The notes: generated from the sequence alone by a model not told the origin. Shown: positions 3,220 to 63,228, numbered from the whole stretch's first letter. The stretch: 63,509 nucleotides of DNA, filler included, from Kipferlia bialata (GCA_003568945.1; 4 parts of 4 records of this genome joined end to end with filler, not necessarily neighbours in it); one strand, 5' to 3'. Program-made: numbers and translations.

Positions 3220-4140
3220 ATATTTACATATCTATATCCATACCTGACCCTGCCTCTGTCATGATGGGCACCACATAGTCAGAGCCACGGCCCTGGGGGT
3301 GAGGGCGTGATCACAAAGCAGTATCTATGAAAAGACTATTGTGTATAAATGTAATATTAAAATGATCGCACCTCCGTACTGTCTGGTACTCCCATAGTCC
3401 CTAGGAACAGTGTCTCTGGGTCATCTCCTCCACACTCATCAAGCAGGGTCTGTAGCAGTTCCTCCCTTGCGTGAGGAGAGCTGAGTGTGGTATAAAACAT
3501 TCAATATACACATAGTATATATCATACATACATACAATATAGTATATTCACATGCGGTACCTCCACGTGTATGGTATCTCCCCTGCTGCATCACCCCTGG
3601 CCTTGTCGGACTCGTGGTTGCCTAGGGGTTAAGAGGTTATACAAACATTCACATACATACTATAAATATATATACATATATATATATGTAGTGTGGTGCA
3701 TATCGATAATGGAATATATATAAGGAACTCACCGAATGTGACCATGTATGGCAGTCCCAGCTCCTGTGTGACATACTGGCACACACGCACATGACCTGTC
3801 TTGCACTGGGGGTGAGGGGAAGCACCGTACATAAACAAGTGTATATAACAAATACACACACACACACATACACACACATACATATAGATAGATAGATAAA
3901 GAGAGATAGAGAAAGAGATACACAGAGAGCCCTATGTATAGATGCAGCTTAGTAAGCCAGAATGACTACCTGAGTGGTGGTGGACCCTGTGTACACGTCA
4001 AAAGAGAGGGATAGAGAGAGAGTAAGAGATACCGGCACATATATATTCATATCAACAATAGATACACAGTACCTGAGTGGTGGTGGACCCTGTGTACACA
4101 TCCCCTGTCACCACAACCATGTCGGCATCATACATCTCAG
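721..4140 (-). CDS. Calcineurin-like metallophosphoesterase, Dcr2/plant PAP14-16-28-29 type, with C-terminal TM helix (about 14 exons; 5' end with DxH motif missing)
   Basis: The spliced exons give the family motifs in order: DMVVVTGDVY (4073-4140), LPYMVTF|GNHESD, LVWAFDTHSY..WGCLEHTQ|VSWV, SMGFMH|IPTAQW, GEDVCWSS, VLSVGH|DHLNNYC..LCY|AGKT..GARVFRL. The last exon 721-982 encodes hydrophobic ILYVSLVLVVAFSIVVSLI and ends in TAG. Intron phases are consistent. Confidence 0.88.
1432..1520 (-). repeat. 9-bp tandem repeat (CTGTACTGT) encoding (Asp-Ser-Thr)n inside a phosphoesterase exon
   Basis: About 9 imperfect copies; the ORF track reads TDSTDSTDSADITDSTDSTDSTDSTDST. Confidence 0.9.
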
Positions 4141-4712
4141 CTGGGGGTGAGGGAGGATATCAATAATGAATATATATACATATATATATTTAGGGAGAGA
4201 GAGAGAGAGAGAGAGAGAGACGGAATAATAATGTCACCACAACCATGTCGGCGTCATACATCTCAGCTGAGAGTGAAGGATAGTATATATATCAGAGAGA
4301 GAGGATGGGGAGGGGAAGAGTAAGGATATACTATCATACATCTCAGCTGGGGGTGAGGGATTTATCATATTATGGACAGAGAGGGAGAGAGGGAAGGGCA
4401 GAATGGAAGAAGGGAGGATACTATAACCATTAGTGTCTCGCCATCATACACCCCATCTTGTAATATAGAGAGACAGAGAGAAGGGTGTCATTATAGAGTG
4501 CAGGTATTATTTGGAATGAGAGAGAGAGTTGGGGAGGCGAACGGGGTAAGGGGGGGGGGGGGGGAAAGGGGGGGGGGGGGGGGGGACTCTTCCAAGAAAA
4601 GAAAGAATGGGAGGGTGAGGAATACTTCAGATAAACAGAGAGAGATAGAGAGACATTGAGAGGTAACTGCACGGGGAGACACTGCTATACATATATACAT
4701 ATATATATATAC

Positions 4713-5559
4713 CTGGGCTAGGGGGTGCATCTGGGGCACCAACACCTGGGGACATGCATGCCTCAGACACCTCTGGGGGGTGAGGGGAGGACGCGCACAG
4801 ATATACACATTCCCCACTATATAACATGGATACAATACCTCTGCTGATGGGCTCTATGGGCATCTCCCCGTTCTTGACCGCCTCCTCCTGCTCTCTCTTC
4901 TCTCTCTCTGCCTCTCTGTCCCTCTCAATCTCAGCAGCTATCACCTGGTCCACTACTCCTAGAGTTAGAGGTACTATCAGTACTATTGATATATCCAATG
5001 TGTACTATGACATATAATGTGTACATGTCCCGCTCAATCTCAGCAGCTATCACCTGGTCAACAACGCCTGCAGCGTCAGTACTCTCATTAATAGCACTCT
5101 ACATCCTAGACAAATGACTAATATATGGGAATATGAGTGTATACGTACCTGTCTCTGCCATCTCGAGGTATATACACTATGCTATTTATAGTGTGTATAC
5201 TATGAACGCTATCATTTATATATACTAATATACTGTACCCTACCTGTCTCTGCCATCTCGATGTATGCCGGGTGTCTGACCACATCCCTCATGTCACCCT
5301 CAACCACGTTGGAGGGCCTGAGGGTTAGTAGCATTAAGGTATATGTATATGTAGCTATACTAGTGTACACATATCCATAGATTAGTGTGATATAGAAACA
5401 TTTCCCTCATATCACCCTCTACCACATTGGAGGGCCTAGGATAAGGAATACATGTGACCACTCAAGACACAATATGTATAAATGTACTACTTGTATACCA
5501 TACCTAGACTGCCTGCCCTTCTTGAGCACTGGCTTCGGTGCATGGGCAGGGGGCAGGGG

Positions 5560-5597
<38 letters not shown>

Positions 5598-8500
5598 ATA
5601 TAAATATACACATATACCTTGACTGCCTGCCCTTCTTGAGCACTGGCTTGGGTGCATGGACAGGGGTATGTATATATATATATATATACTATACTAATGG
5701 TATACCTAGATTGTCTGCCCTTCTTGAGCACTGGCTTCGGTGCATGGGCAGGGGGCAGGGGGAGGTGGAGCCTCACCCAGTGCCTCTTGGACAGGAACAC
5801 GGTCTCACGCACAAGGGACCTGGAGGTAAGGACTGAACATACATATACATGTATGTATATACACATAGTCACGCACAAGGAACCGGGAAGTTAGATATAT
5901 GTTCAAATATGTATATATATATATATACCTTAACCTCTCTGGCTCTGCGTTGATCTCCTGCACTGTCTCTGTTCTGAGTGACACAGTGGGGGGTGCGGCA
6001 AGCATGTCAGGAGGGGGATCCAGGGACCTAGGGGTAAGGGAGAGAGGAAGGGGAAGAGAGTGAGGGGAGAGCATGTCGGGAGGTGGGTCCAGGGACCTGG
6101 GTTCTTCAAGCTATATGTACGACTATTCAATATACACACACCTTGCCCTCAGCAGCAGGCACCCGAGTGTCTCCATGGGCCAGTTGTGGTCACGGTCGGC
6201 CTGGGTCACCTGGGGGTGAGGGGGTGTAGATACATAGACACAATGAGTATACATAGTACTGTATACACATTCAGCACAATAGCACTCACCGCCCTATCAT
6301 TATTGCAGTCATCAGTATATATATGCGTATATAGTTGTGTACATACCGCCCTGTCATTGTTGTAGTCGAATGTCCAGTGTGTATAGAAATACGAATCTCT
6401 ATATTCATATATAATGTATATAGAATATATAATATATATAATGTATATATATTATACTACTAATACTCACCGCCCTGTCATTGTTGTAGTCGATGTCCAG
6501 AGGCACTGTGGGCAGAGTGACACCCAGCAGAAGGTGGGTGCACACATAGGACACAGCGTATCTGGCAGTAAGCATATATGTATATATACAATAGAGTATA
6601 TATATATATATGTGTATATATATAGATATATATTCATATACAAGAGTGACACCCAGCAGAAGGTGGGTGCACACATAGGAGACAGCATATCTAGGGTGAG
6701 CATATATGTATATATTTATATATATACATCTGGATTGACCACATACCTGACACTCCCACAGTTGTGCCTGGCTACACAAGTACATGTGGAAGAGAGTGAG
6801 GGTACGAATATATGATGGAATACCATACATGACACTCCCACAGTAGTCTGGTTTAAATACAAATATTTTATATACCATACCTGACACTCCCACAGTTGTG
6901 CCTGGCCACATATGCTGCATACATGGACAGGAATGTGATGGGGGGCATGTGGCCTAGGAGGGCTAGGCACTGAGGTTAGAGTGAGACATATAGAGAGAGG
7001 GTAGAGAGAGAGAGAGAGAGGTGGGGGCCAAAGATGCTTATGTACTAAAGTGGTAGGTACAATGATACGCCTGATATATATATATTGGAATATTGACAAA
7101 TACACTGCATACCTGGTATATGGGGTGCACTGAGAGTGCCCCCTTGATATATATGAATATTTATAAATATTTATATTAATTATAATATAATATACAATTA
7201 CTACAATAGTTTACAAATAAATATATATAATTAGTATGCATAATACCTGGTATATGGGGTGCACTGAGAGTGCCCCCTTGAGGGCCAGGTCAAGGGCATG
7301 CTTCCTATCCTCTCCTTCTCCGTCTCCCTCTGTCTCAGTCTCCACACCAGGTGGTTCCATCAGGGAGGCATTGCTGCCAAACAGCACAGACAGAAGAGAG
7401 TCGTCACCTAGAGTAAGGTCCTGGGACTCCTCGCCCTCAGAGGCACTGGGGTGAGTGTATATAGATAGTAATATATATATACACACCACTCAATCGTTGA
7501 CACATGTTGTGTATATGTAGATATACCTCTCCTCACCCTCAGAGGCACTGGGGTGAGTATAAATTGCAACACACTACTCAAATGTCCACATATATATAAT
7601 AATACAAATACTAACGTGTGTGTGTGTAATAGTACAATACCTCTCCTCGTCCTCTGGCTGTATGAGCTGGGCACTGGGCACATGTATATATATACACAAC
7701 AATATACAGTATGTATATATAGTAGTACCTCTCCTCATCCTCTGGCTGTATGAGCTGGGATGGGCTGAGTATGAGGGTGGGCAGAGGGAAGGGCCGGGTG
7801 GTCAGGTGCCGGAGGCCACGGACCTGGGGTGAGGGTACTGATACAAATATATCACTTATGTATAAATACATATATATACTCACCTCTGACACCAGGTGTA
7901 AGGTGCTGTTATGCAGTCTGACAACAAATTTTCAAATGTATATAAGACTTATATATACATATATGCATATACCTCTGACACCAGGTGTATGGTGCTGTTC
8001 TGCAGTCTGAGGAATGCAGCCAGCAGTGCATCATGGCCCCTCTTGGACTGACACATCATGGACTGGTCGCCCTATGATAAGTCTATCTATATTAATATGT
8101 AAATATATATATGTATGTATATATATATAGAGAGAGAGACACTCTTGGACTGGCACATCATGGACTGATCACCCTAATAATTGGGATATATACGTATACA
8201 TATAAGACATCATGGACTGGTCGCCCTGAGGGTTAAGTATAAGAGTGATATGTATATGGGGGGGGGGGTAATACTGATTACGTAACTCAGAGATATGAGT
8301 AACTACCTGTGTCTTTGGCGCCTTCTGAGTCTTCTGCCCCTTCTTGGCCTTGCCACCCTTCTTGGGGGTGTTCTCGGTCTTGGCTGGGGTTAAGGATACA
8401 TATAGTACAAATACACATATAGTATATATCCATATGCACCCACCCTTGGCTGCCTTGGGGTCGTTGAGTTCCATGATGCTCTTGTCCACCAGACGCTGCA

Positions 8501-10159
8501 TGTACCTAAGGGGTGAGAGGGGCATATTCTATACAATCGTCAATGCATAGATGGATACATAGTACAAGGGTGAGTGTATGCATACTATGTACATTCGCTA
8601 CATTCGCTACATTCGCTACATTCGCTACATTGAAGAATACAATAATATCCTCACAAACCTCTCGGCGCTGTCCCTCTCCTTGACAATCATGCGCACAGAG
8701 GCAATGCCCTGGGGGTCAGAACACTAAGAAATCAAACACATTACTATTAAGATACTAGGGTATACACACACACACATATATATATATATATCCTAGTAGG
8801 GTATGGGCACTGAGGAAATGCCCTGGGGGTCAGACCACTTAGAGCACCACTATATATATACACAACTATCGCTCTACCAAACCACCCTCTATATCAATCA
8901 ACAAATGTATGAACTCACCGAGGCCAGCTTCCTGAGTCTCTTGAGGTATGGTAGAGCAGCATATATTCATCTGGATGTATATGTATATATGTATGCATAT
9001 ATATATATATCTACTCACCGAGGCCAGCTTCCTGAGTCTGTTGAGGTAGAGCAGTGCTGTCTGGGGCTTGGACAGCATGGAGAGAACACACTCCCGCTCG
9101 ACATCGGGGAATCTAGGGTAAGAGGTAGAGTACATATATAGAGGGAGGGGGGCATGTAGAATAGAATAGAAAGAATGGAGAGGACACACTCCCTATGGAC
9201 ATCGGGGAACCTGATGGATAAGAGAGAGAGATTCATCAGTATAAAGGCACGACACACTCCCAAGTATATATAACATACCCTAGGATATCCCAGAGTCTCT
9301 TTATGGATGCCACTGTCCTGGCCAGTGGATACATTGTATATATGTATATAGTACATGTATATATATAGTATATACATACCCCAGTATGTCCCACAGTCTC
9401 TTGATGGATGCCACTGTTCTGGCCAAGGTATATATATTGTATATATATATATATATATAGAAGAGTATACATAGTATATACTATATACAGTGATATATAT
9501 AAACACACCCTAATATGTCCCACAGTCTCTTGATGGATGCCACTGTCCTGGCGAGAGGTGAGACAGCACGCATCTGGAGGGTGCCACCCTGTCTGGAGCT
9601 AGAGGTTAGAGAGGTATATATATAAACAGAGACAGAGAACAACGGGTAATACATATGCAGGGTGAGAGTAACATGTATAGGGAGGGTACCACCCTGTCAG
9701 GAGCTGGGTCAGCATATTAATATATATATACTTGAGAGAGAGAGGGAGAGAGAATATGTCAAGAGATGGTCACCATACCTGGCCCTGGTTGCTCTGCCAC
9801 TGACAGGTCTGTTGGCAGTGATATAATACCATATATATGAAAACTCTACATTATACTTTACATATACTATAATGTAATATACCTGGCCCTGGTTGCCCTC
9901 CCGCTGACAGGTCTGTTGGCAGTACGAGAACTGGCACGGGAGGTGGATCTGAATGGTGAATATATAGAGAGCACACACATATATATGTATATACATAGAT
10001 ATAGATCACCTGAATGGAGTTGTGACGTGGTCCCTGACCGATGACCCCACCAGCTGTGTGTCCTGTCTCTCTCTCTCCCCCTGCCGCTTCTGCTTGCCAG
10101 AGGCGTTGAGGGCACTGCGGGGGACGTGATAGTCTCTGAGGTGAGAAATAGATGAAAAC

Positions 10160-10193
<34 letters not shown>

Positions 10194-10248
10194 CAGAGGC
10201 ATTGAGGGCACTGCGGGGGACATGATAGTCCCTGATATTAGTTGCAGT

Positions 10249-10289
<41 letters not shown>

Positions 10290-10724
10290 ACAGAGGCATT
10301 GAGGGCACTCCTAGGCACGTGGTAGTCCCTGAGGGTAGTTGCAGATATATACAAATATATATATGAATACATATGTATACAGAGGGTGTGTAGGTGTATA
10401 TATATATACCCACCGTGTGTGCTTCATGCTGCCGCGAGGTCTGCCCCCTATATATACACATATATGATACACAATTAATGTATATATACCCTTACTAATC
10501 CCTGTACCTTGTGTGCTTCATGCTGCTGAGGGGTCTGGCCCCTGTCCCGGCCTGGGACCTGGCACCGGACCTGGTCCTGGACGAGGCACGGTCCCTGGGG
10601 TTAGTGTCAATGTATAGTATATACGTATGGAATAATACAGAAAGCGAACATCTGAAATATATAGAGACAGAGAGTTCTATGACCGAGGAGGCACGGTCCC
10701 TAAAGGTAAGTGTCAATGTATATT

Positions 10725-10769
<45 letters not shown>

Positions 10770-11864
10770 TACACTGCCCTGGTCCTGGAGGAGGCACGGT
10801 CCCTGGGGGTTAGACATGTATGTATACATGTTACCGATTATATATATATATATATATATATACCTAAACACTAGATCAGTAGCACAGGCCTAGTATGTAT
10901 ATATCGTGTACACTACCTCATAGTGAGTGATGCCGCCATGCTTGGCTTGACATTCCCTCTCTTGACAGGGGTATCAGTCACACCTCGGATGGGGACAGGG
11001 ACATCGCCAATGCGCCTGGCATTGGGGATATAATAGAACAGAGATAGAGTGTGTGAGTGAGAGAGGGAGTCATTGAGAGAGAAAGAAGGGTACCAATGTC
11101 ATCTTATCAACATGGATGCAAAACACAGGTCATAGGAGGGATACAGATACTGAGGAATGATATATAAAGACAGGGATGTGTCACTGACTTAGGAAGACTA
11201 GTATATGGGATATGTAGGGGTACGGTAAGGGGAAGAGACCCCCATGTAACAATGATACATGTGCTTGTTAAGTACAAATACATATCATCACATATTCACA
11301 AAGGCACTAAAGAATTGCACACAATAGGAAGTAGCTATGAATGTAGTCAGTGTGGAGTGTCATTGCACAGTACCCATACCTATCAAACACCAACAGAGAT
11401 GCCGGAATGTCCACTGGCCCAGGCACAGCCTCCAGCTGGTCATGCACCTCTCTCTCCATCTCCCTCTCCCTCTCCCTCTCGGGTCCCACCAGCCCCAGGG
11501 GGTTGGGGTCGTGTGCCCTGCGTGCTGACCGGGTCCCTGGCCTCCCACTCCGGCCCCTCTCCCTCCTCTCTATGGCACCCACTCTCCCTCTGTCTCTCCT
11601 GGTGCCTCCCCTGGTCACGGGTCTGCCCCCACGTCCAGTGGAGGTACCAGTCGCACCAGAGCGTGTCCTAGGGCGCCCTCCCCGGCCCCTGCTTGCCTTC
11701 CTGCTGCTCCTGCTCCCCTTCCTGGCAAAGAAGTCGGCCAGGGCAGGGTCACGCTTGGGGTTGTACTGCACAAGCCGGTCAGTCACCTTGACAGAGTTGT
11801 CAAAGCCAGCCTCACGGGCCGCTATGGTGTCTATGTACGCCTCATAACTGCGGGCACGCGACAT
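4713..11864 (-). CDS. Hypothetical protein, about 19 exons, Arg/Gly/Ser-rich N-terminus followed by a helical region; 3' end not found
   Basis: ATG at 11864 (MSRARSYEAYID...), first exon 11380-11864. A phase-consistent exon chain follows, e.g. LARTVASIKRLWDILG|FPDVERECVLSML, SLVRETVFLSKRHWVRL, GVVDQVIAAEIERD, EVSEACMSPG (4713-4772). The LWDILGFPDVER segment loosely recalls CCDC87/MAP65-type helices (weak). Confidence 0.75.
8590..8630. repeat. 9-bp tandem repeat ACATTCGCT x4 (intronic)
   Basis: Directly visible in the sequence. Confidence 0.85.
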
Positions 11865-12200
11865 ACGAGCGAAAAAGTGGCTCGGAAATGAAAGTGTGCT
11901 CACAGCTGTTCGGTAGGAACCTCTACCGCTACCAGTCGGTCAAAGACGACGATTAGCCCGCACTGGTGTGTTACCACGCAGAACTAGGCTCCCCTGACTC
12001 CGGTATGGCCTGAAAGGAAGGACCAAAATCTGATACTGAATTTATGAAATCGGACCCTTGCTGGTCTGCTTTTCCATTCACTCTCCCCCTCTCTCTCTCT
12101 CTCACTCTCTCTCACACACTATCCTTCCTCCTACTGACACTGGCGTCCTCACAAGTGCATAGGTGGAAGTGACATAAATGTGGTCTCCCTCTCACCCCAG
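11865..12200. promoter_or_regulatory. Short head-to-head intergenic region, probable bidirectional promoter
   Basis: A minus-strand ATG at 11864 and the first clear plus-strand exon at 12201 are under 340 bp apart. The start exon of the plus gene is not resolved. Confidence 0.4.
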
Positions 12201-12820
12201 GCATCCCTCACTGCACTGGAGTCCAAGCACGCCAGTCTCAATGAGAGGTATCACGCATGTGTATAATGTCATCAATGAGTGCACTCATATATGTATTCAT
12301 TTGTATGTGTATTCACTCTAGTATTAGTATTTGTTTACCACATGCACCAAGATGGTTATGTGTATAGAAGGACATATAGTGTTACCCTTCTCTGTGTGGA
12401 CTCCGGTGTCCTGTGTGAGACTTCATACTCTGCCACTCTTATATTTTATTGTACTGACCATAGATACTCTGGTGTCCTGTCTGAGCTGACTGGCAAGTAC
12501 ATGCTCTCATATACTTCTCTATAGACTCTATCTACGTTATATATATGTGTATATTCTCTACCTCTATCTTACCTCAGATACTCCGGTGTCCTGTCCGAGC
12601 TGACTGGCATGAGGGCAGAGTGGGACCAGAGGGAGAAGGAGGCACAGAGGTATGTACATATATATGTATATGTATATATAGTGATGTAGTATGTATAGTA
12701 TTTATATATATATTTGTGTGGCATGATGGAGAAGGAGGCACAGAGGTATGTATCTATATGTATATATATATATAGAGAGAGAGAGAGAGGGAGAGAGAGA
12801 GAGATATGTAGTATGTATAG

Positions 12821-12862
<42 letters not shown>

Positions 12863-14002
12863 GTGCATAGTGGGACCAGAGGGAGAGGGCACGGACTAAC
12901 ATAAATATACTGACCCCCAGCAATGCCCGTGCCCTCCAACAGCTCAAGAGGGAGAACGAGGATTTGAAGAAGAGGTATATATCAACATTACCTACACTAT
13001 TAGTGCTAGATATTAAGTATATGTTATATTCGTACAGCATATCACATATTTGTCCTATGCATATTGTCTCACCGCAGGGTGGCTGATAGCAAGGAGTACA
13101 CTCGCAAGCTACAGGCAAAGGTCCAGGGTGAGTGTTTGTGTGTATATTTTGTGCCAACAGAGTGGCATGACTCCCTCTCTTTCTCTCTATCCATATAGAT
13201 AGATTGATACCCTAACCCCCTAGTCCGTGCCCAGCCGAAAGGCATGGCAGACATCTCTCTCCCTCTATTCCTCTCTCTCTCTATATATATATACATGTAT
13301 ATATAAATCACTAACCCCCTAGTCCGTGCCCAACACAGTGGCGTGGCAGACCTCTCTCTCTCTATTTGAATGTAGTGTTACGTATACATATGTATACTAT
13401 GTATATGTTATATATATATATCACTAACCCCCTAGTCCGTGCCCAGCAGAGTGGCATGGCTGACCTCCTTGGCAAGATGCAGCAGCTGCAGAACGATAAC
13501 CAGGTGGGGACAAGATAACACATCACAATGCTTGATATTTAGTGCTGGTCTGTCATATATTTCTTTTGCATATTACTATAACTACTATTTCTACTTTATA
13601 TATTACACGATATACTGTGATATATACTCACCTCCATATACCCATCCTTAGGCCAAGGACGACATCCTGGAGTCACTCACTCGCATACTTCTCATTTAAT
13701 TATAATATGATATATATAGTATTTTTCTACTATTATTCCTGACCCCTTGGCCAAGGACGACATCACTTGATATGTACGATATATTATTCATTCTTGTAAT
13801 ACCCGATTATTCCCGAGTTGTATATTCTAATGTCCAGGCCAAGGACGACATCATCCTGGACCTTTAGATACTGTTGTTATCACCCATATTTACTTCTTAT
13901 TGTATGAATCACTTACCCCTAGGCCAAGGACGACATCATCCTCGAGGTGTAAGTATTATATGCTTGGCACTCAATTTCTATCATTATGTATATATATTAT
14001 AT

Positions 14003-14036
<34 letters not shown>

Positions 14037-14239
14037 TTATACTAATGTCCAGGCCAAGGACGACATCATTCTGGAGCAGGAGGACGAGGTGACAGACCTC
14101 AAGGCAGAGCTCACGGCACTGGCCAACGCACTTAGCAACACTGGTTAGTACATTTGTATATATATGGTTTCTATGTATATATATACACCTCAAGGCAGAG
14201 CTCACGGCACTGGCCAACGCTCTATCAAACACAGGTCAG

Positions 14240-14272
<33 letters not shown>

Positions 14273-15407
14273 GCATGTAGTTTCTATGTATATATATATG
14301 CCTCGAGGCAGAGCTCACGGCACTGGCCAACGCTCTTAGTAACACAGGTTAGCACACATTTCTCTCTCGCTCGCTCTCCGTCTCTCTTTCTCTATTGATT
14401 CGTCTTCTCACTCTTTTCAGAGGCCAATATGGGTCTCTCTGCCCCTCGGTCCCCCATGTCACCTTTCTCTCTATCTCTTTCTCTCTCTCTCCCAATATAT
14501 ATAGATAGATAGATGTCCAATGCCATACCTAACTCCGCAGAAGCTAACATGGGTCTCTCTGCCCCTAGATCCCCCATGTCCCCTGGGGCAGCCAGGCAGT
14601 ATCTGGAGCAGAGTCTCCTTCACAAGTGAGTGTAATGAATGTATATATATATATTAGTATTTATATGTGTATATGTATATATATGAGTACATATCTATGT
14701 ATGTCCACTGGGGCAGCCAGACAGTGTCTGGAGCAGAGTCTGCTGCACAAGTGAGTGTATTATATATATGCACACATTCATATGTATGTATGTGTGCATG
14801 TGTATATGTATGCATTCGTATACATTCTTGATACTCATCCCAGGCTCTCTGTTGCCAACCACTCTCTGGAGAGCATGCGTCTGCAGCTCACAGAGTCAGA
14901 CAGACAGGTATATGCTCTTATATTCTCTCACATTATTATATGATATATACAAGTATACATATATATGTGTATATATGTCATATACATTCAGCTCGCAGAG
15001 TCAGACAGACAGGTGTGTGGATATAGATAGGTAGATAGATGTATTGATACTGACACTAATAGTAAATGAATACGAAGCTATCTCACCCCAGCTGGAGCAG
15101 TCCAAGAGCCGCTACCAGGCCATCAGGGCAGAGTTCCAGGTACATGGAGTGTCTCATTATTTATACATGTATATTATATATATATATATATGTACACTGT
15201 ACATATATATATGTATATATATATATATATATGTGTGTATATATCTTCCAGGCAATCAGGGCAGAGTTCCAGGTATATATTTCAGTGTATATACAATTGT
15301 GTATAATGTGTATACAGTGATATATACACATTCCTACCCATCAGGACAATGCGGCTGACAGGGCCAAGGCCCAGTCCGAGAGGGACACAGCCATGTTCGA
15401 TCTCAGG

Positions 15408-15438
<31 letters not shown>

Positions 15439-17989: not shown

Positions 17990-18002
17990 AGGGTCTAGGG
18001 GG

Positions 18003-18044
<42 letters not shown>

Positions 18045-18543
18045 GATAGAGAGCTCTCTATTGAGACTGGTTGCTGATCTCCATCTCCCCTCTCTCGTTT
18101 AGTGTTATGCACATGTGTCCTTGATGTGCAGTTGTACCACCATAAATATTAATACATACACAGTGGGTATTTGTATGCATTAGGTGTGTTGCACACCTTT
18201 TGACGAAAACAGTGGACAAACTCAAAAAGTTCTCAACCCTTTTTCAATTTGTCATTTGACACATATCTTGCCTGAATCTATGATAGCTTTTCTTCTCTCT
18301 CTTCTTCTATGACTGTCCCCACATCTATCTATATCACTGGTTCATATCGCCAATGCGGAACCTTATTGCTAGAATGAGGCTGAGGGCATGGTTTGGGAGC
18401 GAGTGGACAGCTCTGTTGTTGGTGGGACTAGGTATGATGATGCATTGTATGTACGTGGTATAGTGGAGGACATAACTGGCGATAGTGTCTGTGGAAGCAG
18501 GTGGGGGGGGGGGGGGGGGGAAAAACCCCCAAAAAATTTTTTC

Positions 18544-46354: not shown

Positions 46355-46396
<42 letters not shown>

Positions 46397-48583: not shown

Positions 48584-48899
48584 ATCAGTGTAAGTTGAAT
48601 GGATCGTTGTACCATTCGCAATTAGAGTCCAGATCAATGTGACTTGGACGTAGATAGAGAGTTGTACTGTCTCATTTTGACAGTGTATCTCTCACCCATA
48701 TACTTTTGTAATTTTATGTCATCTAGAGACTGTATCACCTTTATGATACCAGTTAGAGAGACATCGTACGCCATCTATGAATAGATTATATGTCGTGGAC
48801 TGATGTCCAGTTGGTCACTGAATTACAGTCATTCAATGACTCATTTTCTGGAATTTCTCATTCTTGAATTCAATCGACATTCAATCGACACATTTTCAA

Positions 48900-50867: not shown

Positions 50868-52375
50868 TGGCTTAGATACCACTACCCTAGTGGTAATAGA
50901 TATGAAGTCTTAGAGTCTCTGCGATAGCGGTATCAAGCACTCTCAAGGATGAAGAGACACATCAATGGGTAGCTTGTATGCCATGTGCTACTATCACACA
51001 CAACACCATCTTTGGTCGATGCTCAGAGTTTTGAGTAGCATATTGCAACCATGTTTGAGAGAACCTGGCCACCATGTATATCAGAGGGGTCTTAGCGTAC
51101 TATTGATTTGAGGGTGTCATTCGTAAGTTCTGGTCCAGAATCTGTAATTGTCCAGAATCTGAACAACTTAATAACCATCAATTGAATAGATTCTATTCTG
51201 GCCGACAGCTGATACCATCAGATTACCATTACGAAACGCCTAACAGTAGCAAAACCCTGAACGCTTGGGTTATGTAAAACATAGTATGCTCAACATACAC
51301 TAAGATAGCCGTGAGCAGCTACTCTTCTTTCTTGTCCTTGTCCTTCTGACTGCCTTGGAAGTCCCACCTGTAGAAGGAAGGGTGGTTCTAAAGTGTCAGA
51401 ATACACTGATTAGACAATCGGTCACATACATCAACAGGAGGAATAGTCAGTATCATTCAATGCATATTCGCTGTGTCATACCACACTATATACTGTATAT
51501 GGGTAACAGGCAAGCTATGAGTCCTCATACTAGAGAATAGCGCTAAGCGATTAGGTCAACAGTGGACATTAAGAGTCGAAACTAGTATAGTTACGTGTAC
51601 CTTCTGTTGAATGGACCACTTCAGAAATGGAGAGTGGGTGTTGCATGTCGACACATGAGTGATGCTTGGAAGGGGCGGGAACCCATTCTCACCAAACTGA
51701 GAGTAAACACGATACTTTTGAAGGTTCAATGGATAACTGTATAGTGAACTTAGTACTGTGTCCTACCCTTTGTCCGGCGTGATATCTTGGTGGCTTTGCT
51801 ATTGACGAAGTATCTGACTCATCACGGTGATGAGTCTCATCACCCATGTATCGGGACATAAGTGTTACAGAATCGGTGGCTGTACAGAGTACGCTTTGAG
51901 TTCGTAAGAGATATTTGTATCCGTAGCTCCAGTATACCAGACCATCATATATACAGTTGAGGATTTCAAAGGAAGCATTGTTTTAGAGCGTTTGATAAGA
52001 CCGTAACTTACGGTCACCGTAAGACACCTGCAATAGTTGCGGTGAGATATAATATGATTGAAGTAACTCATTCAGAAATGAGCTACAGTAACTGTCTGAC
52101 CTAGACAGGTCAGTGTGAAGTATAACTCATAACGTAACAGTGGCTACTGCTTTGTCAATATCCGACAGATTGTTGCATACTTTTCCAGCAATAGATAGTT
52201 AGGAAGTGAACCCACTCAGCGACATGTTCTATCCTCTTCCCCATAGTCCCTCTTCAACCGAACAGACTCATTCACTCAAGAGAACATTCAATCTATCCCA
52301 ATAAGACTCTCATTGTCAATAAGAGTGACCGTATTCTATCCTGAATGTTGTGATTCTGGGGCCACTTAATAGTAC

Positions 52376-55343
52376 TCAACTCATACTCACACCCCCTAGC
52401 TCCTCGTAGCCAATGTCAAGCCCCAGCTCCCTGACCCTCTCTAGGTCGATGTGCAGGATGTAGTTGCCTCTGTCCCATCTGGTGTAGTCATCAGAGGGCC
52501 TAGGGTTAGATATTCGAATAGATGATAGTGATAGAGGGCCTAGGGTTAAGAGTCGATTAGATATGAGATGTACGTATACTCAGTGATACTGATACTGATA
52601 CTGATACTGGTATACCATACCTCACAATGTCCACTAGGTAAGACGTCTCTGTCAGCTGGCAGCAGTGCTTACACATGAAGTCCGTAGAGACTAGCTGCTG
52701 CCACTCCCCAGTCACTCTGTCAATCAGCGATAAGAAAAGGTGCTCTCTGCGGCCCTCTGGTGTTGTCCTCTTATCCGTGTGGGCAAACATGAGGGTGTAG
52801 TAGTTGCCGAAGGGTATAGGACCAGGGCCAGAGAGGGTGTATGTGTCCTGGGTACCACAGGGACAGGGTATGCCTACCCATCCACCCTCCATGGTGAACC
52901 TGGTATGGTGAGTATGTGATATATGCAACATATACTATATCCACTCTCTAAGTAAGGTATACTATTAAAAAGGCACAAGTATTATACTTTCTCATGAAAT
53001 ATACTTGTGACAAGTATATTTCATGATAGAGCTCATATACCATATATATGAGTCATATACGAACTCATATTAGAGTAATAATGTAATGGTAGTGGAAACT
53101 AACCTCTGGCATGGTGGAACCTCTCTCTTGCCAGTGAATACCCCAACATACACGAGAGCGTCTGCATCTAGGTAGACAAGAGGCGAGGGCACGGGGTCAA
53201 AGAGATCTCTGGGGGCTGATATTGGAGTCTAACAGAGAGTCTAACACAGAGTCTAATGTAGACTGATTCTTAGTAAGACTCTCTGTGCGGAAACTGACAA
53301 GATAATAGTATCACACCATGTCAAACATACTATGATAGTATGATACTATCTAATATATGTAATAGCTGATATTGACAAGTTCATAGTATGTATTGTACGC
53401 ACCTACAGGGAAGAGCGGACGTGATGGTAGCTGTGTCCACTGCTCAGTGTCAGTATCGAGTAGATACATGTCACCAGTGTAGCAGAGAGCTAGTACTTGG
53501 CCTTGGAACTTCATCAGTACCTACGTGTGAAGGCTATATACTGGATCTAGCAGAAATGTATGAGTCTCTCGACACATATATATATACAGTACATCATTAT
53601 GTATGTATACCTCGACGGGGGACTGTGGTCCATTATCTAGAGACACCTCAGTGCTGGTCTCTGAGGTTAGATCATTTATACCATGCAATACATGCTGTAC
53701 TATGTATACTGGGTTCCTACCTGTTGCCATGTCCCACTTGTCCATCTTCCGACCAGTATCCATACTATATATATGTATTCTCTATGTATAGTACAAACTT
53801 TATTCTGCCATTCCACCTGTTGCTATGTCCCACTTGTCCATGGTTACAGTGCCCACACAGTTGACTGGCTCTCCAATGGAGTACAGGGTGGAACCTGTTG
53901 TAAGCTATCAATGACCGATAGTCTATCGATCATTGAGCGGAGAATTGCGATGTATGATACTGTCACTGACTGCCTCTCCGATGGGGAAGAGGGTGGATCC
54001 TGGAGTGCCACCATAATTCATCCACTTATATATATATATAGGTGTGTTGTTTCTACACGTATCCCATAGAGCTATGATATAGTCTATATCATAGAGAGAT
54101 CCTCTGAAAGGATACACAATGTTGAGAGAGACACAATATAGTCATCAAATATATATGCAATACTGTGCATATATATATCATAGTCATAAACAATATGTAC
54201 CTGTCACTATGAATTGATATACTGCATACACTGTGTATACTCTACTTTCAGTCTCTATAGTAAGAATACTATATATCTGAAGTACTATATACTATGAGAT
54301 ATTAGCCTAATATCATATTTGGTACCTGTCACAATGAATTGGTGGGCCTTCTGCCAGGCACCGTATATGTTCTCCACACATCTTTCAATGGAATCACTGT
54401 CCTCCGTCTTAGGGAGGGGCGGGATCTCATGCATCTCAGGAGTGCCTGGTATCAGAGTTTCAGACTGAAACTTTCAGTCCACGAGTGTCAGATACATAAT
54501 GTGTATGCTTATGTGACAATTGTTATGTCAATGTGTTCTTAATGTATCAATAATTCATTAAGACAACTACTTCGATTTATCTACACACAGACACATACAC
54601 ATGCAAATACAATGTATATGTATTAGTATGTATATGCATTAGTATGTATATTATACATGCATACACTACACGTCAAGAAGAAATGAGAGATAGTATCACT
54701 CAAAGATATAGCCTATATCTCTGGTATTGGGAGATAGATATATAGATATGTACATGTCTGTCACAGATATTACTTGTCCTCTGAGTGTGTACTGACTCGA
54801 CAATGTCGAGTCGACATACAGTAACTACATGCCGTATATATGGAGAGAGAGACTGAATGTCAGAGACTTGTATATACCTTCTCCTGTGAGTGTGTACAAT
54901 TATATATACATATATGCATATATATATATAGCATGTGCACTAACACTAGGTACCTTTCACTATGAATTGATATAGTATCAGAGACTTGAATATACCTTCT
55001 TCTGTGAGTGTGTACAGTTCCTTCCCTACAGCCACCAGGTTAGGCCTGACATATCTCGCATACTTCACATCAAAGGGAATGTCAACCTGAGTGAGTTGGA
55101 GTCAAAGAAAGGGGGCAGGAGGGGGAAACATACAGTGAGTTGGATGAGATATAAAGGGGGGGGGGGGGAGGAGGGGGGGGGAGCAACATACAACGTGCAG
55201 TCTATATACACTGGTATATGAGTTCTCTCTCTCCATATCTATACCTCCTCCAGTCTCAGACACGACTTATCCTGCGCCTGTCCGTCTATGAGACTCTCGT
55301 ACAGACACACAACAGGCAGGCCTTCTGTGAATCTCCGAAACAT
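52376..55343 (-). CDS. Divergent kelch-like/beta-propeller protein (about 9 exons)
   Basis: ATG at 55343 (MFRRFTEGLPVV). Exons include LVAVGKELYTL, STLYSIGE, GDMYLLDTDTEQWTQLPSRP and LIDRVTGEWQQL. The C-terminal YILHIDLERVREL resembles IVVADIDLEALDEL of the 36278 gene. Confidence 0.65.
52992..53026. repeat. Perfect inverted repeat, 17-bp arms with a 1-nt loop, in an intron
   Basis: TCATGAAATATACTTGT-G-ACAAGTATATTTCATGA. Confidence 0.95.
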
Positions 55344-55859
55344 GAGTATAGAGAAGATAAGCCTTCAGTCGACTGCTCTCAGATACGGAGATTCGTAGAG
55401 TCGGATGTTTTTGGTCTCAAACCCTTTTCTCCCCTTTGTCTGTACACTTAGCAACCATGTTTTATACACAGGCCACCATGCGCATCAGCCATACTATAGT
55501 ATATCAATGGGTTGAAGATGTTTTTTTCAAGTAGAGCAAACTTTACTTAGTAAACCATCTATTTCTAGTGACCCATGATGCCATCAATGATTCAGTTCAA
55601 GAATAACAATTATTAACGACTGTCCTGTTGCTAGTTTGATTGTGTGTTCGGGGCTCTCTGAATGATCGAAAACTATCATAGTTATACTAAGTAAACTCGT
55701 CAAGTAAAGCTACTTTGATGTCACCCTCCTGCATTGATAGCATAATACACACATCTATTACACAACTGTACAGCCTTCATATGATTGGACCACCTATCCA
55801 ATATCTAAAGAATATATCACAAGGGATCAAAGAGCAGTATCCTCCCTCTCTCTCACTCC

Positions 55860-56076
55860 TTACTGCTCCTGGTTCTGCAGCTCTGCCTCCTGTACCACAG
55901 GCACCATCATGGGGGCCTAACATAAGCTTATACATACATACTAATATACCCATATATATATGTATATACTCATATGTATTTCAATCTCGTACAGTAGTGG
56001 AGGGTACCATCATAGGGGCCATGGGCATGGGGACTAGGACAGTCTGGGGCACAAGGACAACGGGTGAGGCAATCTG

Positions 56077-56115
<39 letters not shown>

Positions 56116-56270
56116 CAACGGGGGAGGCAATCTAAGCATTAGTATTTATACATATATATATAGAGTGGCACAAGGACAACGGGGGAGGCAATCTAAGCGT
56201 TAGTATTTATACATATATATGAATAGAGAGAGAGAATGGGGCACAAGGACAACGGGGGAGGCAATCTGGT

Positions 56271-56304
<34 letters not shown>

Positions 56305-59300
56305 GAGAGAGAACTATTATGGGGGACACGGACAACGGGGGAGGCTATCTGATTTCAGAGAGAGTGTGTGAGAGAGAGAGTACATTATCCTACCTGACCA
56401 GGGAGCATCTGCACTGGCTCTGGTGTTCCCTCTCCCTCTCCCTCAGAGTTGTCAGCAGCAGCCTCCATGTCAAGGCCTAGGCATCAGGTTTAGTATACGC
56501 ATACTACATACATGTAATTCATATTGACAAATATTATACTGACATAGATTCTATGTATACATATACATATAACACATCGACTTGTCAGCAGCCTCCATGT
56601 CCAGACCTGGGTGTCAGCACGGATATGTATATACACTGAATGATAACTAAATAGGTATACCTATCAGTATTAACGTCACAGTCTAGGCACACAATAATCA
56701 TAGAATCAGATATGTACTAAAAGAGACTATATATAGTATATACGATCACATACCGTCTACCCCCTCCTCCACAGCGTCAGGGACAGTGTCAATGGGGGAT
56801 GAACAGTCGACTACAGCACCGGGGGCATCCTCCTTAGACTGCTTGGGCTAGGGGTTAGGGTATGAATATCAATATATATATATAAGCTACTAATATATAT
56901 ATATGATTGATGACTGCTTGGGCTAGGGGTTAGTATATGTATATATGTAAGATACCTACCTCCGACACAGAGAAGCTTCATAACCATATATATGTCTCTA
57001 TTTATAAAAAAACTATAAAACTATCTATAATTATATAGCTATCTATATATACCTTGGTGATGTGCCTGTATCCAAAGTACACATATATTAGTATATACCT
57101 ATGTGAGGTGTATGTACTCATATATATATCTAGATATATATATATATTTATATATATAATGTGTATACCTTGGTGATGTGCCTGTATCCAAAGTAGCCTC
57201 CGACACCCAGGCCAAGGACCACAATGACAATGACAGCAATGAGGATGCCTGAGAGGTTAAGACACAAATGATACATAATTCACAACAACGAACAAAAAGT
57301 ACTTGAACACTCACCGTTTCCGCCCTCCCCTGGTGGGTTGGGGTTGACCTCGACCTCAACAGAGTCAGAGATGGCAAAGCTGGGGTTAGGAACCATATAC
57401 AATATATCATCTACTAATATATGCTCTTGACATACTCATTTACTCATATACAAAAACATATGTATGACCTCGACCTCAACAGAGTCGGAGATGGCAAAGC
57501 TGGGGTGAGGAACCAGTACCATCTGTACAACTATCCTATACATATACCTCATGTCTCCCTCGATGACTGTGTCTCACAATGTAATATATGGACCAACATA
57601 TCCATATATCTTCTACATTTAGTATCCATACCTTGTGTCTCCCTCGATGGCCACTGCGTATGTAGCTGGGCCGGCATCATCAAGGAACACACTAGGGGTA
57701 AGAGAGAGAATAGGGTATGCATTCTTATGAATAGAGAGATGACTATTGGGTGTTGGACCCGAAGCCTAACATATCTGATATGTCATATTGTGTCATATTA
57801 TGTTACATATCATACCTGGCGACCAGTGCTGAGCGTGCAGCGTCCCAGATGAAGGTACCCACGTTGGACCAGCCAGAGCCTGAGGGTATTAGTATCTATA
57901 CATTGTATCTATACACTATATATATATACATTGTATCTATATACTATATATATTATATATAAGTACTGCCAAAGGGTGATGGATGGAGGGGAAGAGAAAG
58001 AGAGAGAGAGGGAAGACTGATACGACGTCTCCCTCAGCCATTTTGAGGTATCGCGCTCTCTATCTCAGTATATTCAATTAATTACACACGTACCTGTAAC
58101 AGTGAGTGTGACGTCTCCCTCTGCCTTGATTGCATAGGTGGCAGAGTCAGTATATGTATACTAGTATATATATACATATGTATATATGTATACATACCAG
58201 TGACAGTAAGGGTCACATCTCCCTCTGCCTTGGTTGCATAGGTGGCAGAGTCGGTGGGCTCGCCAATGACATTGCCATAGATGTCTAGCAGGGTCATGAC
58301 AAAGTCATTGTACTCCTGAGGGTAAGGGCTACTGTATTGATAACACTGCATTGTAGTATACATTACTATATATTCACATATATACATATTGCCCTTGATG
58401 TCTAGAAGGTCCATGACAAAGTCATTGTACTCCTAACAGTTAGGGTATCATAACACTATACAAATATATGCATATAACACATAGACGCATGTAATATATA
58501 TTGGCAGGGTAGTAGAGAATTGATAGATGTCCAGAAGAGTCATCACAAAGTCATTGTATTCCTGAGGATAGGGGTCAATTAGGGACACTATAACAATAAC
58601 ACTATACATTGAAGTATGCATTATTATATGTATATAATAGAGAGAATGTATACAAGAGAGTATATATAGTGATTGTTATATACAACTCTACATATGTGTA
58701 TAGGACCATATATATCTGTCCTTCAATGTACACATGACACAGGAATTATGACACAATACACTACCTGTGCCAATGGGTTCTCTGGGATCGCTCTTAATGA
58801 AATATATGTCTACACATATATGTATATGTACATATACATCAATATATACACAAGTGGATACATATCTATATATACCTGAGCCACTGGGTTCTCTGGGGGT
58901 GTGACTGTGGTGTCACTATACTACTCTCTCTCTCTCTATACATGTATCCATCTCTCTCAATATATACACATATTTAGATTGTATACCTGAGCCACTGGGT
59001 TCTAAGTATGAAATTTATGTATACACCTATATGTATATGTATATATACTTGTATATATAAACATATATTGCATACCTGGGCAACTGGGTTCTCAGGTGGT
59101 GTTACTGTGGTGTCTGCGGCATCGGCAGCAGCAGTCTCAATGATGATAGAGCCTGTGGTATAAGAATGTGACTCATAAATATACAAGACCCATATATATG
59201 TGTATATTAATATATATATATATATATATATATTCAGTTGAGGCTGAGAGTTAGGCAAACACCAAACCACACACATGTATCCACATAGAAATATGCAATA

Positions 59301-60948
59301 CGTATACATAAGAATACGTATATAGAGGAATACCTGCGTTGGCGACGAACGGTGTGCTCTGGTTAGAGTACCCGACAGAAAGAGTGTAGACACCGGACTT
59401 GTACTGAAGGTAAGGTCTACCATACATACACTCTGACACATGATATATAAAATAGTAGAGAGGGCCTAAATGTAGGTATGTGTACTGATAGACGGGGTGT
59501 AGACGCCGGACTTGTACTGAAGGTTAGGCCTAACTAACTATATATATAGGCTAGTAATTCTCAGTCACACAAAGTAATATGAGAATAATAGGCCTAATGA
59601 GTCTTAGCGCCGAACAACTCATTTTATAAAAATAGAAGAATTATAGACGAAAATATTAAATACATATACATTGAACGTCTATACCTTAAGGGTGTTGCTT
59701 CCGATCACTGTGTAGAGGTCTGTCGAGCTGTTGAAGGAGGGTGTGATGGTCTCGGTGTAGGTGGCACTGGTGAAGGTGACCTGATATAAGAATACAATAC
59801 ATATATGGTGATACACACACACACACATACATATATGAGTATATATATAAGTATATATACAATAGTTGGCACTGGTGAAGGTGACCTGAGGGTAGTATAT
59901 GAATATATACATATATGTATATTTATAGAAGGAGTATAGAAGATGTACATGTATTCCCATAAGTCTAAGGTGGCACTGGTGAAGGTGACCTGCAGTAGGA
60001 TACACAACATATTCAATTCACATATATGAAGACATATATGCATGTACAATATATATCTCAAGGTTGGAGTTGAATAGACGTTGTAGGACACCAGGGCCAT
60101 AATACACAATACACAATACATGTATATGTATATATATGGGTGTGTGTATATGAATGTATGTGTATATTTGTACACAATAGATACCTCAAGGTTGGAGTTG
60201 AATGTCAAGAGCATCTCAGTGGCGTCGTAGAGACCCAGGGTGAAGGAGAAGCTGCGACCAGCCCTGACATAAGGGTGTAGAGAGAGAGAGAGAGAAGGAG
60301 AAGCTCCGACCAGCCCTGACAGTAAGGGTGTAGGGAGACAGATAGAGAGAGAAGGAGAAGCTGCGACCAGCCCTGACATAAGGGTGTAGGGAGGGAGGGA
60401 GAGAGAGAGGGAGAAGTAGAAGGTATAATGGGTGTAGAGAGAGAGAAGTGCAAGGTGTAGGGGTTATGTATATATGTGTGTAGAGAGAGAAAGCGTACGT
60501 GGGGTTGGTTGGGAACGAGATCTGCACGGTGTTGGCGGTGTCTCTAGCCGGTTGGATGTTGCCAATATACTCCCAGTCACCACTGTCGTACAGGCTGTCT
60601 GCGTCGGGTCCCACATGGAAGTACCTACGGTTAGGCAGATATTGTATATATTATATGTATTAGAGACATATATTATAAACATATCCATACATAATATTGA
60701 TCATGAATACTGTCGGGTCCGACATGGAAGTACCTGCGGTTAATCCCGGTTAATTATATACACAATATTCAATACTAAATATATACACAATATTCAATGC
60801 TAAACATTGTCATATATTGCAAATGTATGATCTAAGTGATGGACATATATGCCTTCTTAACAACTGCAACATACATCCCCTATAACTCCTAAACTAATAT
60901 ACTGACGTAGAAGTAGCTGCGGTTTGACGAATCTCGCTCTCTTGCTCG

Positions 60949-60984
<36 letters not shown>

Positions 60985-61761
60985 CCCTCCCTCTTTCTAT
61001 AATACTATATATATACATATATATGTATATACATACTCACACGAAGAAGGCGTCTGTTGAGGTCACGGGGACGCTGGCCTCGTATAAGGCTGATGGTTAG
61101 TAATAGTAATTAGTAATGACATGGGTGTAACTATGACTGAATTGACGTGATGGTTGCTAGTGTAAACTGACATCCAATGATGCCTGAATGGGGTAGGTCC
61201 TCTCTTGATATGTATACAGTACCGTATGTAAACAGTACACTCCCTATTAAGCATCCAGAAACCCATGTAAGGAATGAATACAACATCACATATACTTCAA
61301 TATTTACATGTATCGATTAATAGATGCACTCACTTGGGTCCTCAGTTGACTGTATAGCGGTGACCTTCTGCTCATTGGCAGTGCCTGGGGTGGGTAACAA
61401 GACATCTAGTTAGTATATATACATTAGCTAATCGAATATATATATCCTAATATAAACATATATATTATAGTGACCTTCTGCTCATTGGCAGTGCCTGGGG
61501 TGGGTAAGACATATATATATACAATAATATATATATATACTAATATAAATATATATGTATATATAGTAGTGACCTTCTGCTCCTCGGCAGTCCATAGAGT
61601 AAAGACAGTAATTAATGAAAACAATCAATAGTGTAGTATCGAACAGTACATTTGAATATATATACATATATCTATCTATGCCTACTATACATGCCTACGT
61701 GTGCCCAGGCCTGAATGACAACCGAGTGGGTCATATAGTTAAAGTACTCATCCTTCACCTG

Positions 61762-61801
<40 letters not shown>

Positions 61802-62033
61802 CAGATAGAGAGAGAGAGAGAGGCATACATGAGGTGGGTGAGGAGAAGACCAGGGGATGACGGAGAGGGAAAAGAGAGAGAGACACCACTATTGTTATAT
61901 ATAGTAAGAAATCTGCGGAAAAGAGAGGATTGCTAACACAATTGTTATGTGTATTGTGTTCATGATACTGATACTGATACTGACAAGTGTTATTGTGGCA
62001 CTGTAGTATCGTGTTGTGTGATATCTGTTCAAG

Positions 62034-62074
<41 letters not shown>

Positions 62075-62211
62075 TATATATATACATACACACACACACA
62101 CACACATATATATATGTATCATTGTGGCATATGAAAATATCATAATACACCAAAACATCAATATGTAGACAATTATATACATTATGATAGCAGCATTCAG
62201 TAGATTCATAC

Positions 62212-62254
<43 letters not shown>

Positions 62255-63228
62255 TAGACCCGTACCCTGGCACCAACGATGGTGTCCTCATTGGCGTACT
62301 TGTATGTCGCTGAGGTCGCCATGACAGGCGAAGTGGAGTTGATCACTGTTATTAATTATAATAACATATTATTAGTTATATATTATAATACATAATAATA
62401 CAGATAAATAATGTATGACAGGCGAAGTGGAGTAGATCACTGAGTGTTATAGTAAATAAAGAAAAAAATATATATGGACATTGAGAGAAAACTCAGGGCA
62501 CTAAGCTTATATATATATATATATATTATATATACCTGATGAACTGAGGGATGGTGTGACGTCGTCATCAGTCATGAAGAGGTCACCGTTAATGTGGATC
62601 TTGACTGAAGGTGAGTGTTACTTATAAGACTCATCTTATGACGAATACTACAAGTAATATAACGGATACAACAAGTAATATAACGAATACTACAAGTAAT
62701 ATATCGAATACTACAAGTAATGGGTATGTAGTCAATGTGGATCTAGACTGGATGTGAGGGCTATACACAAAACAACAGCATTAGTAATGAGAAACAGTAA
62801 TTACATGTTGTATAGTAGTAATAGTGGTGTAGCAATATAAGAAAATTGAATCAAACACTATAGTGAATAAACAAATATAAATACACAAATATATACTGTA
62901 CTAAAACACCTGTGGAGCGTATCGATCTGGGTGTGTAGACTAAATACACATATATATTCATATGATATATATATACCTGTTGCAGAGTGTACCGATCTGG
63001 GTGTGTAGACTAAATACACATATATTCATATGATATATAACTACCTGTCGTGGAGTGTACCGATCTGGGTGTGTAGACTAAATACATATATATATACACA
63101 TATATATACATACTTATACATAGTATAGTTTATAACACCTGTTGTGGAGGCTACCGATCTGGGTGTGTAGAGGGTGCAGTCCCACTGCTGTGTGGCAGAG
63201 TTGTAGGTGGCGGGGTAGGGGCTGCAAT

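Follow-up and report, generated by a model that had tools for sequence, protein, structure and literature searches.

What are the coding-like fragments that lie in the introns of Kipferlia bialata, a free-living fornicate, and how did they arise? The question is raised by a window of 63,509 nucleotides (the whole stretch of DNA analyzed here), in which four contigs of assembly GCA_003568945.1 are joined by filler (1-18543, 18644-30908, 31009-44916, and 45017-63509), and of which one 39-residue exon is a 100% match to the K. bialata database protein GIQ81716.1 (KIPB_002720). An initial annotation had proposed that introns hold partial copies of the neighboring exon, here termed echoes, that diverged like coding sequence and were left behind when exon ends were replaced from divergent alleles, homeologs, or related strains. 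That interpretation as a whole is partly supported. The half-exon copies are confirmed as real in the sequence and pervasive in three of the four contigs, and we lean slightly toward the view that they are once-functional exon ends displaced by one-sided repair from a divergent allele and joined without homology, the donors and the repair pathway being deduced.

Eleven full or partial gene models (139 exons, 128 introns) were built with our own gene finder and hand curation, using open frames and canonical splice sites as criteria. Gene D includes the annotated protein P0002 letter for letter, with no echo used as an exon. All other models are predicted: genes A, B, C, and Z and the partial models are treated as gene-finder predictions because word-seeded protein searches gave no match. 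Most exons at 48.9-55.5 kb and a Kelch-like gene at 36.3-37.6 kb were left out of modelling. In an unselected scan, exons were aligned with introns, low-complexity matches (fewer than seven distinct dinucleotides) were dropped before counting, and the echo set was taken at a score of 15. With exons over 300 nucleotides (nt) excluded, 96 of 242 exon/adjacent-intron pairs scored at least 14, versus 12 of 2669 pairs from different genes and 8 of 2529 non-adjacent pairs from the same gene.

The scan yielded 142 echoes, on 71 of the 139 exons and in 76 of the 128 introns (Table 1). Echoes are 15-58 nt long (median 30 nt; median share of exon length 43%) and are separated by spacers with a median of 72 nt, such that an intron gains approximately 103 nt per echo; the units are centered near 100 nt with a spread of 40-160 nt, and together account for 15,234 bases, 24% of the window. 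There are one to four echoes per exon side and at most five per intron. In 141/142 cases acceptor-bearing heads lie upstream, and donor-bearing tails downstream, of their own exon, and in all 15 introns with both kinds the tails precede the heads. The splice dinucleotide (AG or GT) is kept in 114 echoes and lost in 28. At most one splice site accompanies an echo, unlike a whole-exon copy, with one fused exception (7547-7527, discussed below). Homology ends abruptly at the cut, beyond which identity is 0.19-0.25, against 0.21-0.23 for borrowed flanks. All 11 echoes singled out by the initial annotation were recovered in place or within a few bases; its statement that echoes occupy three contigs is correct for the echoes, but the window has four. 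The third contig (31009-44916), which is GC-rich, with long exons and introns of 50-103 nt, and carries a WD40 gene, an SF1 helicase gene, and the Kelch-like gene, has echoes in 0 of 16 introns, compared with 76 of 112 elsewhere, and is possibly a low-recombination compartment.

The differences between exon and echo resemble those between functional coding sequences. Mismatches at codon positions 1, 2, and 3 number 80, 63, and 235 (approximately 1,470 sites each), and codon differences comprise 207 synonymous and 133 non-synonymous changes, three of these being stops. The ratio of non-synonymous to synonymous substitution rates (dN/dS) is 0.18-0.21 (bootstrap 0.14-0.27), or 0.15-0.18 after trimming of the cut ends; genes A, B, and C give 0.11, 0.23, and 0.25, respectively. 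A dead copy beside a selected exon is expected to show a value of about 0.5, and simulated dead duplicates, detected in the same way, averaged 0.49-0.60 and did not fall below 0.35 in any of 120 runs, while a captured-allele simulation with parameters of our choosing gave 0.20. Distances between mismatches, which require no reading frame, are 3-periodic (334:181:139). The silent bias persists at score thresholds from 13 to 25; a lenient mismatch penalty lowers the third-position share to 0.46, which is attributed to chance overextension because real and borrowed flanks contribute extra bases alike (713 and 708). These results support the conclusion that echo and exon were both functional for most of their separation and diverged under protein-level selection, as the initial annotation had argued from eight hand-picked pairs. 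Its count of 41 synonymous to one non-synonymous difference becomes 40 to one on recounting; the bias holds in the unselected set, where dN/dS is not near the neutral-duplicate value, but at nothing like the hand-picked strength.

Signs of later decay and of directional change are also present. The 28 echoes without a splice dinucleotide have a dN/dS of 0.40, and AGY/TCA switches occur at two of 143 aligned serine codons. Silent differences increase toward the splice site (87/333 versus 56/344) and second-position differences increase toward the cut (p = 0.0008), a pattern that fits fresh replacement of the splice-side part.

Ordinary tandem duplication across a splice site, followed by neutral decay, would explain the side rule unaided, and some whole units do have alignable spacers. 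The observed dN/dS, however, lies under all 120 simulated values, and the intron that should have been co-duplicated is generally absent: only 6 of 130 exon-echo flanks score above the 99th percentile of unrelated flanks, and 0 of the 18 echoes at least 97% identical to their exon have a flank above even the 95th. The intron attached to an echo is thus usually unrelated to that of the exon, even where the coding parts are near-identical. Simple tandem duplication was rejected on these two points, and we consider it scarcely credible.

The history of stacked echoes can be followed in 33 triplets of an exon and two echoes. Changes private to the nearest echo number 10:12:28 at codon positions 1, 2, and 3; the silent ones make up 27 of 49, where neutrality predicts 26% (p = 3e-5). 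Proximity does not go with similarity, the nearest echo having 50 third-position differences from the exon and the second 44, and only 5 of 56 echo-echo flank pairs exceed the 99th percentile. As nearest-private changes are biased to silent sites, rank is irrelevant, and attached introns are unrelated, the data favor a branching pool, in which every functional exon end has an intron of its own, over serial duplication in cis. Sibling echoes share the same cut in 22 of 64 pairs (14.5% by chance); seven of these 22 have a common junction flank, and several of the seven have unlike sequence on the splice side. Mosaic structure is seen in the stack at 26905-27342, where the nearest echo has the intron flank of the exon and seven codon differences, all silent (one a serine AGT/TCA switch), while the two farther echoes carry the codons of the exon but another flank. 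Shared cuts, common flanks, and this mosaic agree with part of a second idea of the initial annotation, that copies rotate by unequal crossover or programmed deletion: unequal exchange is retained as a follow-on step, and no evidence of programmed deletion was found.

Divergent alleles would be unnecessary if the exon end were re-synthesized inaccurately in cis on the sister chromatid and lengthened by new low-complexity filler, with selection retaining the silent versions, functional exon ends then evolving several times faster than the frozen echoes. Much about the spacers agrees with this account, as they are rich in A+T, polar, and mirrored on the two sides of the exon, flank homology fades 10-15 nt from the acceptor, and one acceptor-side cassette recurs in unrelated genes; divergence also grows along the direction of synthesis, and de novo synthesis has been proposed for new introns in Daphnia (PMC4202315). 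Yet repair in cis predicts neutral nearest-private changes and divergence rising with rank, neither of which is found, and seven silent codon differences in one nearest echo are too many for a single error-prone event. At silent differences, moreover, the exon more often has the G/C base (95 versus 55). We judge this account unlikely.

The junctions were inspected for traces of the joining process. The initial annotation had described echoes as ending abruptly at (AT)n/(CT)n and had placed rejoining specifically at microsatellites. The abruptness was borne out; dinucleotide repeats, however, are not enriched at the cut (24 of 140 junction 12-mers versus 21% elsewhere in spacers), with only (CT)3 mildly raised (11% versus 6%), and microsatellite-specific joining was rejected. 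A strand-specific deamination signature was looked for and not seen, and a fixed synthesis length is weakly supported (rho = -0.19, p = 0.02). Spacers are not shared across genes within the 63 kb, with 33 complex 14-mers in common versus 37-53 in five Markov simulations, one cassette excepted. In this acceptor-side cassette, CTACACCCTTA follows a (CT)n tract, mostly a few bases ahead of an AG; it occurs at 11 places representing eight independent loci on all four contigs (10 matches versus 0.15 expected). It reflects either intron 3' ends that move between genes or a selected branch motif. The A+T richness and polarity of the spacers may themselves stem from splicing selection against cryptic exons or from fresh synthesis.

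An artefactual origin, in which a short-read assembler stitched divergent haplotypes or strains in tandem, is suggested by the published genome, which derives from Illumina reads, is fragmented, and is described in a main text where the word 'clonal' does not appear (PMC5874029); the centering of unit length near 100 nt would also agree. The spread of unit lengths does not, and the identical run at the cut end reaches 55 nt in 0 and 33 nt in only 6 of the 142 echoes. Tails-first order is the opposite of a linearized haplotype bubble, sibling echoes bear diverged copies of one junction, and, since 28 echoes have lost their splice site and three codons are stops, echoes are not working alleles. 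The published assembly size equals the k-mer estimate, with a single coverage peak (PMC5874029). On these in-window tests, an assembly artefact is very unlikely.

Echoes might instead be functional now, as alternative splice sites or as sequences swapped in by programmed deletion between direct repeats. Retention of AG or GT by most of them and a slight conservatism of replacements (p = 0.06) point this way, as does the piece at 7547-7527 (-), which is 21 nt long, in frame, flanked by both splice sites, and looks like a fusion of the following exon's head with the preceding exon's tail; it is a candidate new micro-exon. Use of the splice site of the nearest echo, however, would keep the frame and avoid stops in only 8 of 82 cases, annotated P0002 needs no echo, and decay is evident. 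Present function for the echoes as a class seems to us very improbable indeed.

Displacement by one-sided repair, the reading favored here, would proceed as follows. A break would occur inside a short exon, and one end would invade the conserved exon of another allele; copying would pass the splice site and continue approximately 70 nt into an unrelated intron before the end detaches and is linked by end-joining to the other side of the break, leaving the gene intact and the old half-exon within the intron. Exon ends and echoes could then undergo unequal exchange or conversion, as shared junctions and mosaics suggest, by which echoes would multiply, be refreshed, and sometimes be reinstated. 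Those not refreshed would decay, losing splice sites and gaining stops, a pattern visible among the echoes. K. bialata is listed as having Dmc1, Spo11, and PolQ and as lacking Rad51A and Ku70 (PMC8516963), and Dmc1 stabilizes mismatched base triplets (PMC6719624). Because both enzymes are present without Rad51A and Ku, Dmc1 and polymerase theta are the likely agents; this link, drawn from gene content, is suggestive.

The donors could also be homeologs, or the second homolog after hybridization or long asexual divergence, with the mechanism otherwise the same. A large polymorphic population would then not be needed, and the species has been reported to be diploid from k-mer peaks (PMC5874029). 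However, an exon side can carry as many as four echoes, whose flanks are mostly unrelated and whose rank gives no order of age, so more than two versions must have been available, and we regard such donors as distinctly unlikely.

Several observations weigh against displacement by divergent alleles. No donor allele was seen and no other strain was found in two metagenome scans (for P0002, 0 of 100 pattern matches were confirmed; for the helicase, five distant loci were found among at least 598 matches), and allele capture requires a large standing diversity with unalignable introns. Spacer A+T content is 0.72-0.77, against about 0.65 in intron cores, and polarity is marked, with (CT)4 at 120 versus 15 and (GA)4 at 0 versus 38; such spacers could consist of newly synthesized filler and not of intron copied from an allele. 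Where flanks can still be aligned (11 pairs, selected by high flank score), 16% of flank sites mismatch, as do 30% of third codon positions and 6% of positions 1 and 2; the flank value alone fits a dead copy, which the codon ratio excludes. In the mosaic stack, saturated silent divergence lies next to an almost identical flank. Only five site pairs were available to the four-gamete test, of which one was incompatible. Gene D, the sole independently annotated gene while the other frames are predicted, has a dN/dS of 0.26 with a range (0.12-0.56) that includes 0.5, and the gradient of first- plus second-position differences by halves is not significant (p = 0.26).

The relationship of echoes to known systems may now be considered. 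Belmaaza and Chartrand (1994) reportedly described one-sided invasion, or aborted homologous repair, finished by end-joining. Products of such events and of microhomology-mediated break-induced replication (MMBIR) are known as sporadic, arising in gene targeting or disease rearrangements. Like echoes, one-sided invasion with end-joining and the template switching of MMBIR (PMC4888836) leave one homologous end, one non-homologous junction, and a local duplication, and the abrupt non-homologous junction is present in echoes. Echoes differ in occurring at roughly one unit per intron, in being centered on splice sites, and in the signature of protein-level selection in the leftover. Gao and Lynch (2009) are said to have described internal gene duplication and intron gain by tandem genomic duplication. 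This process (PMC3443670) likewise produces short direct repeats in genes, including exon sequence and splice sites; its copies start identical and create new introns, whereas echoes show no intron gain, unrelated intron DNA, and coding-like divergence. Tandem exon duplicates used in mutually exclusive splicing are whole, expressed exons with both splice sites; they share with echoes a location beside a related exon and low dN/dS, but echoes are half-exons with one splice site. In homology-facilitated illegitimate recombination of transformable bacteria, a homologous anchor admits divergent DNA with an illegitimate joint at the other end; unlike the case of echoes, it involves DNA uptake, no introns, and no displaced half-exon. 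Intron gain by break repair in Daphnia combines A+T-rich new intron DNA with a 4-12 bp repeat of adjacent exon flanking the new intron (PMC4202315), resembling echoes in composition, in exon-sequence repeats, and in the repair invoked, while echoes are 15-58 nt and stacked inside existing introns. Introners, which form families of near-identical elements (PMC9860276), similarly supply intron DNA in bulk genome-wide; within the 63 kb, echo spacers are not common to different genes beyond chance, except for the one short cassette, and Kipferlia is not named in the main text of that paper. Simple tandem duplication, duplicated exons, and Introners each have defining tests that half-exon echoes fail.

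Each molecular step is known on its own. No description of the genome-wide architecture turned up in the full-text literature searched, a corpus whose coverage excludes most subscription papers, and the words 'exon', 'duplicat', 'microsatellite', and 'heterozyg' are absent from the main text of the genome paper (PMC5874029). Extrapolating 142 echoes per 128 introns from this one window to the 124,912 introns reported for the species gives about 139,000 units. If that figure holds, echoes would let introns and the genome grow without transposons, and may help to explain why the K. bialata genome, at 51 Mb, is twice that of Carpediemonas membranifera, at 24 Mb in a published table; if allele displacement is true, that way of growth would be an undescribed one. 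More tentatively, and with less than even confidence, we propose genome-wide turnover of exon ends by Rad51/Ku-less repair, in which Dmc1, tolerant of mismatches, and polymerase theta draw on highly divergent alleles. Roughly a quarter of the DNA, amounting to some 100,000 units in order of magnitude if the window is typical, would then store displaced alleles that recombination can return to use. Such units would allow recombination between divergent alleles to be counted in a fornicate and would show in nature how repair proceeds in the absence of Rad51A and Ku; a single genome would preserve a record of population diversity and of genetic exchange, in a lineage for which sex has yet to be proven. 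Exon-definition splicing could also be tested, since intact decoy splice sites lie approximately 100 nt from the real ones.

Table 1. Echoes by gene, example stacks, and acceptor cassettes in the window.
Feature	Number	Introns with echoes	Span	Strand	Coordinates or description
Gene A echoes (predicted; 24 exons, 11864-3548; 853 aa open frame)	29	16/23	3970-10802	-	3970-3999, 4232-4266, 5026-5067, 5149-5171, 5403-5435, 5504-5559, 5618-5666, 6070-6096, 6290-6310, 6347-6377, 6643-6690, 6747-6776, 6829-6847, 7113-7147, 7529-7547, 7641-7671, 7884-7921, 8142-8173, 8207-8225, 8919-8957, 9169-9210, 9279-9328, 9380-9423, 9661-9703, 9779-9819, 10194-10231, 10291-10328, 10414-10449, 10778-10802
Gene B echoes (predicted; 19 exons, 12201-17989)	25	14/18	12398-17849	+	12398-12419, 12464-12495, 12716-12745, 12855-12899, 13147-13172, 13224-13255, 13323-13354, 13652-13666, 13750-13765, 13838-13860, 13923-13946, 14187-14234, 14301-14347, 14421-14464, 14701-14750, 14989-15012, 15245-15272, 15937-15976, 16078-16118, 16361-16408, 16454-16497, 16974-17006, 17207-17241, 17424-17464, 17814-17849
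Gene C echoes (predicted; 36 exons, 30597-18689; fills contig 2)	46	24/35	18918-30694	-	18918-18971, 19177-19213, 20092-20117, 20183-20205, 20674-20698, 21322-21343, 21410-21435, 21683-21701, 21987-22021, 22103-22137, 22372-22404, 22487-22519, 22587-22618, 22898-22922, 23304-23350, 23541-23574, 23635-23657, 24322-24357, 24677-24713, 24856-24905, 24945-24994, 25208-25227, 25759-25786, 25859-25877, 25983-26014, 26766-26808, 26932-26966, 27048-27104, 27155-27203, 27379-27417, 27465-27498, 27805-27825, 27906-27926, 28018-28038, 28109-28129, 28217-28231, 28415-28446, 28508-28542, 28624-28664, 28721-28747, 29009-29043, 29320-29355, 29456-29491, 30105-30129, 30268-30284, 30666-30694
Phosphodiesterase-like gene echoes (predicted partial models F1, F2)	11		45154-47997	+	45154-45174, 45471-45499, 46023-46043, 46122-46151, 46275-46304, 46425-46452, 46679-46694, 46875-46897, 47365-47396, 47642-47693, 47978-47997
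Gene D echoes (annotated P0002; GIQ81716.1, KIPB_002720)	24	13/20	56111-63077	-	56111-56131, 56167-56192, 56230-56265, 56320-56348, 56586-56606, 57053-57079, 57465-57499, 58094-58151, 58388-58432, 58523-58561, 58876-58914, 59487-59516, 59863-59885, 59968-59989, 60057-60075, 60281-60315, 60346-60372, 60712-60733, 61470-61494, 61562-61593, 62415-62439, 62907-62939, 62977-63009, 63045-63077
Gene Z echoes (predicted)	4	3/9	1663-3192	-	1663-1687, 2686-2712, 3051-3078, 3144-3192
Echoes beside partially modelled exons (frames less certain)	3		50053-54901	-	50053-50082, 50164-50193, 54878-54901
Example stack			26905-27342	-	Exon 27342-27266 and three tail echoes; mosaic
Example stack			10010-10340	-	Exon 10135-10010 and two head echoes with same-base cut; six mutual differences, all silent
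Example stack			14096-14360	+	Tail of exon 14053-14143 and two tail echoes; common junction flank, donor-side intron differs; serine AGC/TCA switch
Acceptor cassette	1			+	45054
Acceptor cassette	10			-	63468, 60388, 60332, 60279, 44903, 27435, 24559, 24498, 19822, 376

Further features of the echoes and genes are as follows. By eye, the head echo at 27805-27858 (-) has an in-frame 9-nt insertion relative to exon 27736-27647; the scan caught its inner part only. The phosphodiesterase-like gene has a weak Pfam PDEase_I match (E = 0.046, under the curated cut-off), and P0002 (55860-63451, -) has no Pfam match. One P0002 exon resembles repeats in large proteins of other sources, one of them named from Nostoc, and P0002 is possibly a membrane-anchored protein whose repeat domain has bacterial affinity. 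The annotated P0002 requires a GC donor at 61694 (-), giving a GC-AG intron. For 95 of 100 training exons, the distance from the branch motif to the end of the intron is 9-13 nt, the branch site being nearly fused to the acceptor. A 9-nt tandem repeat in a modelled exon (1417-1538) encodes (DST)n, and one hexamer repeat occurs at three unrelated non-coding places (45823-45858, 52573-52612, and about 61965-61985).

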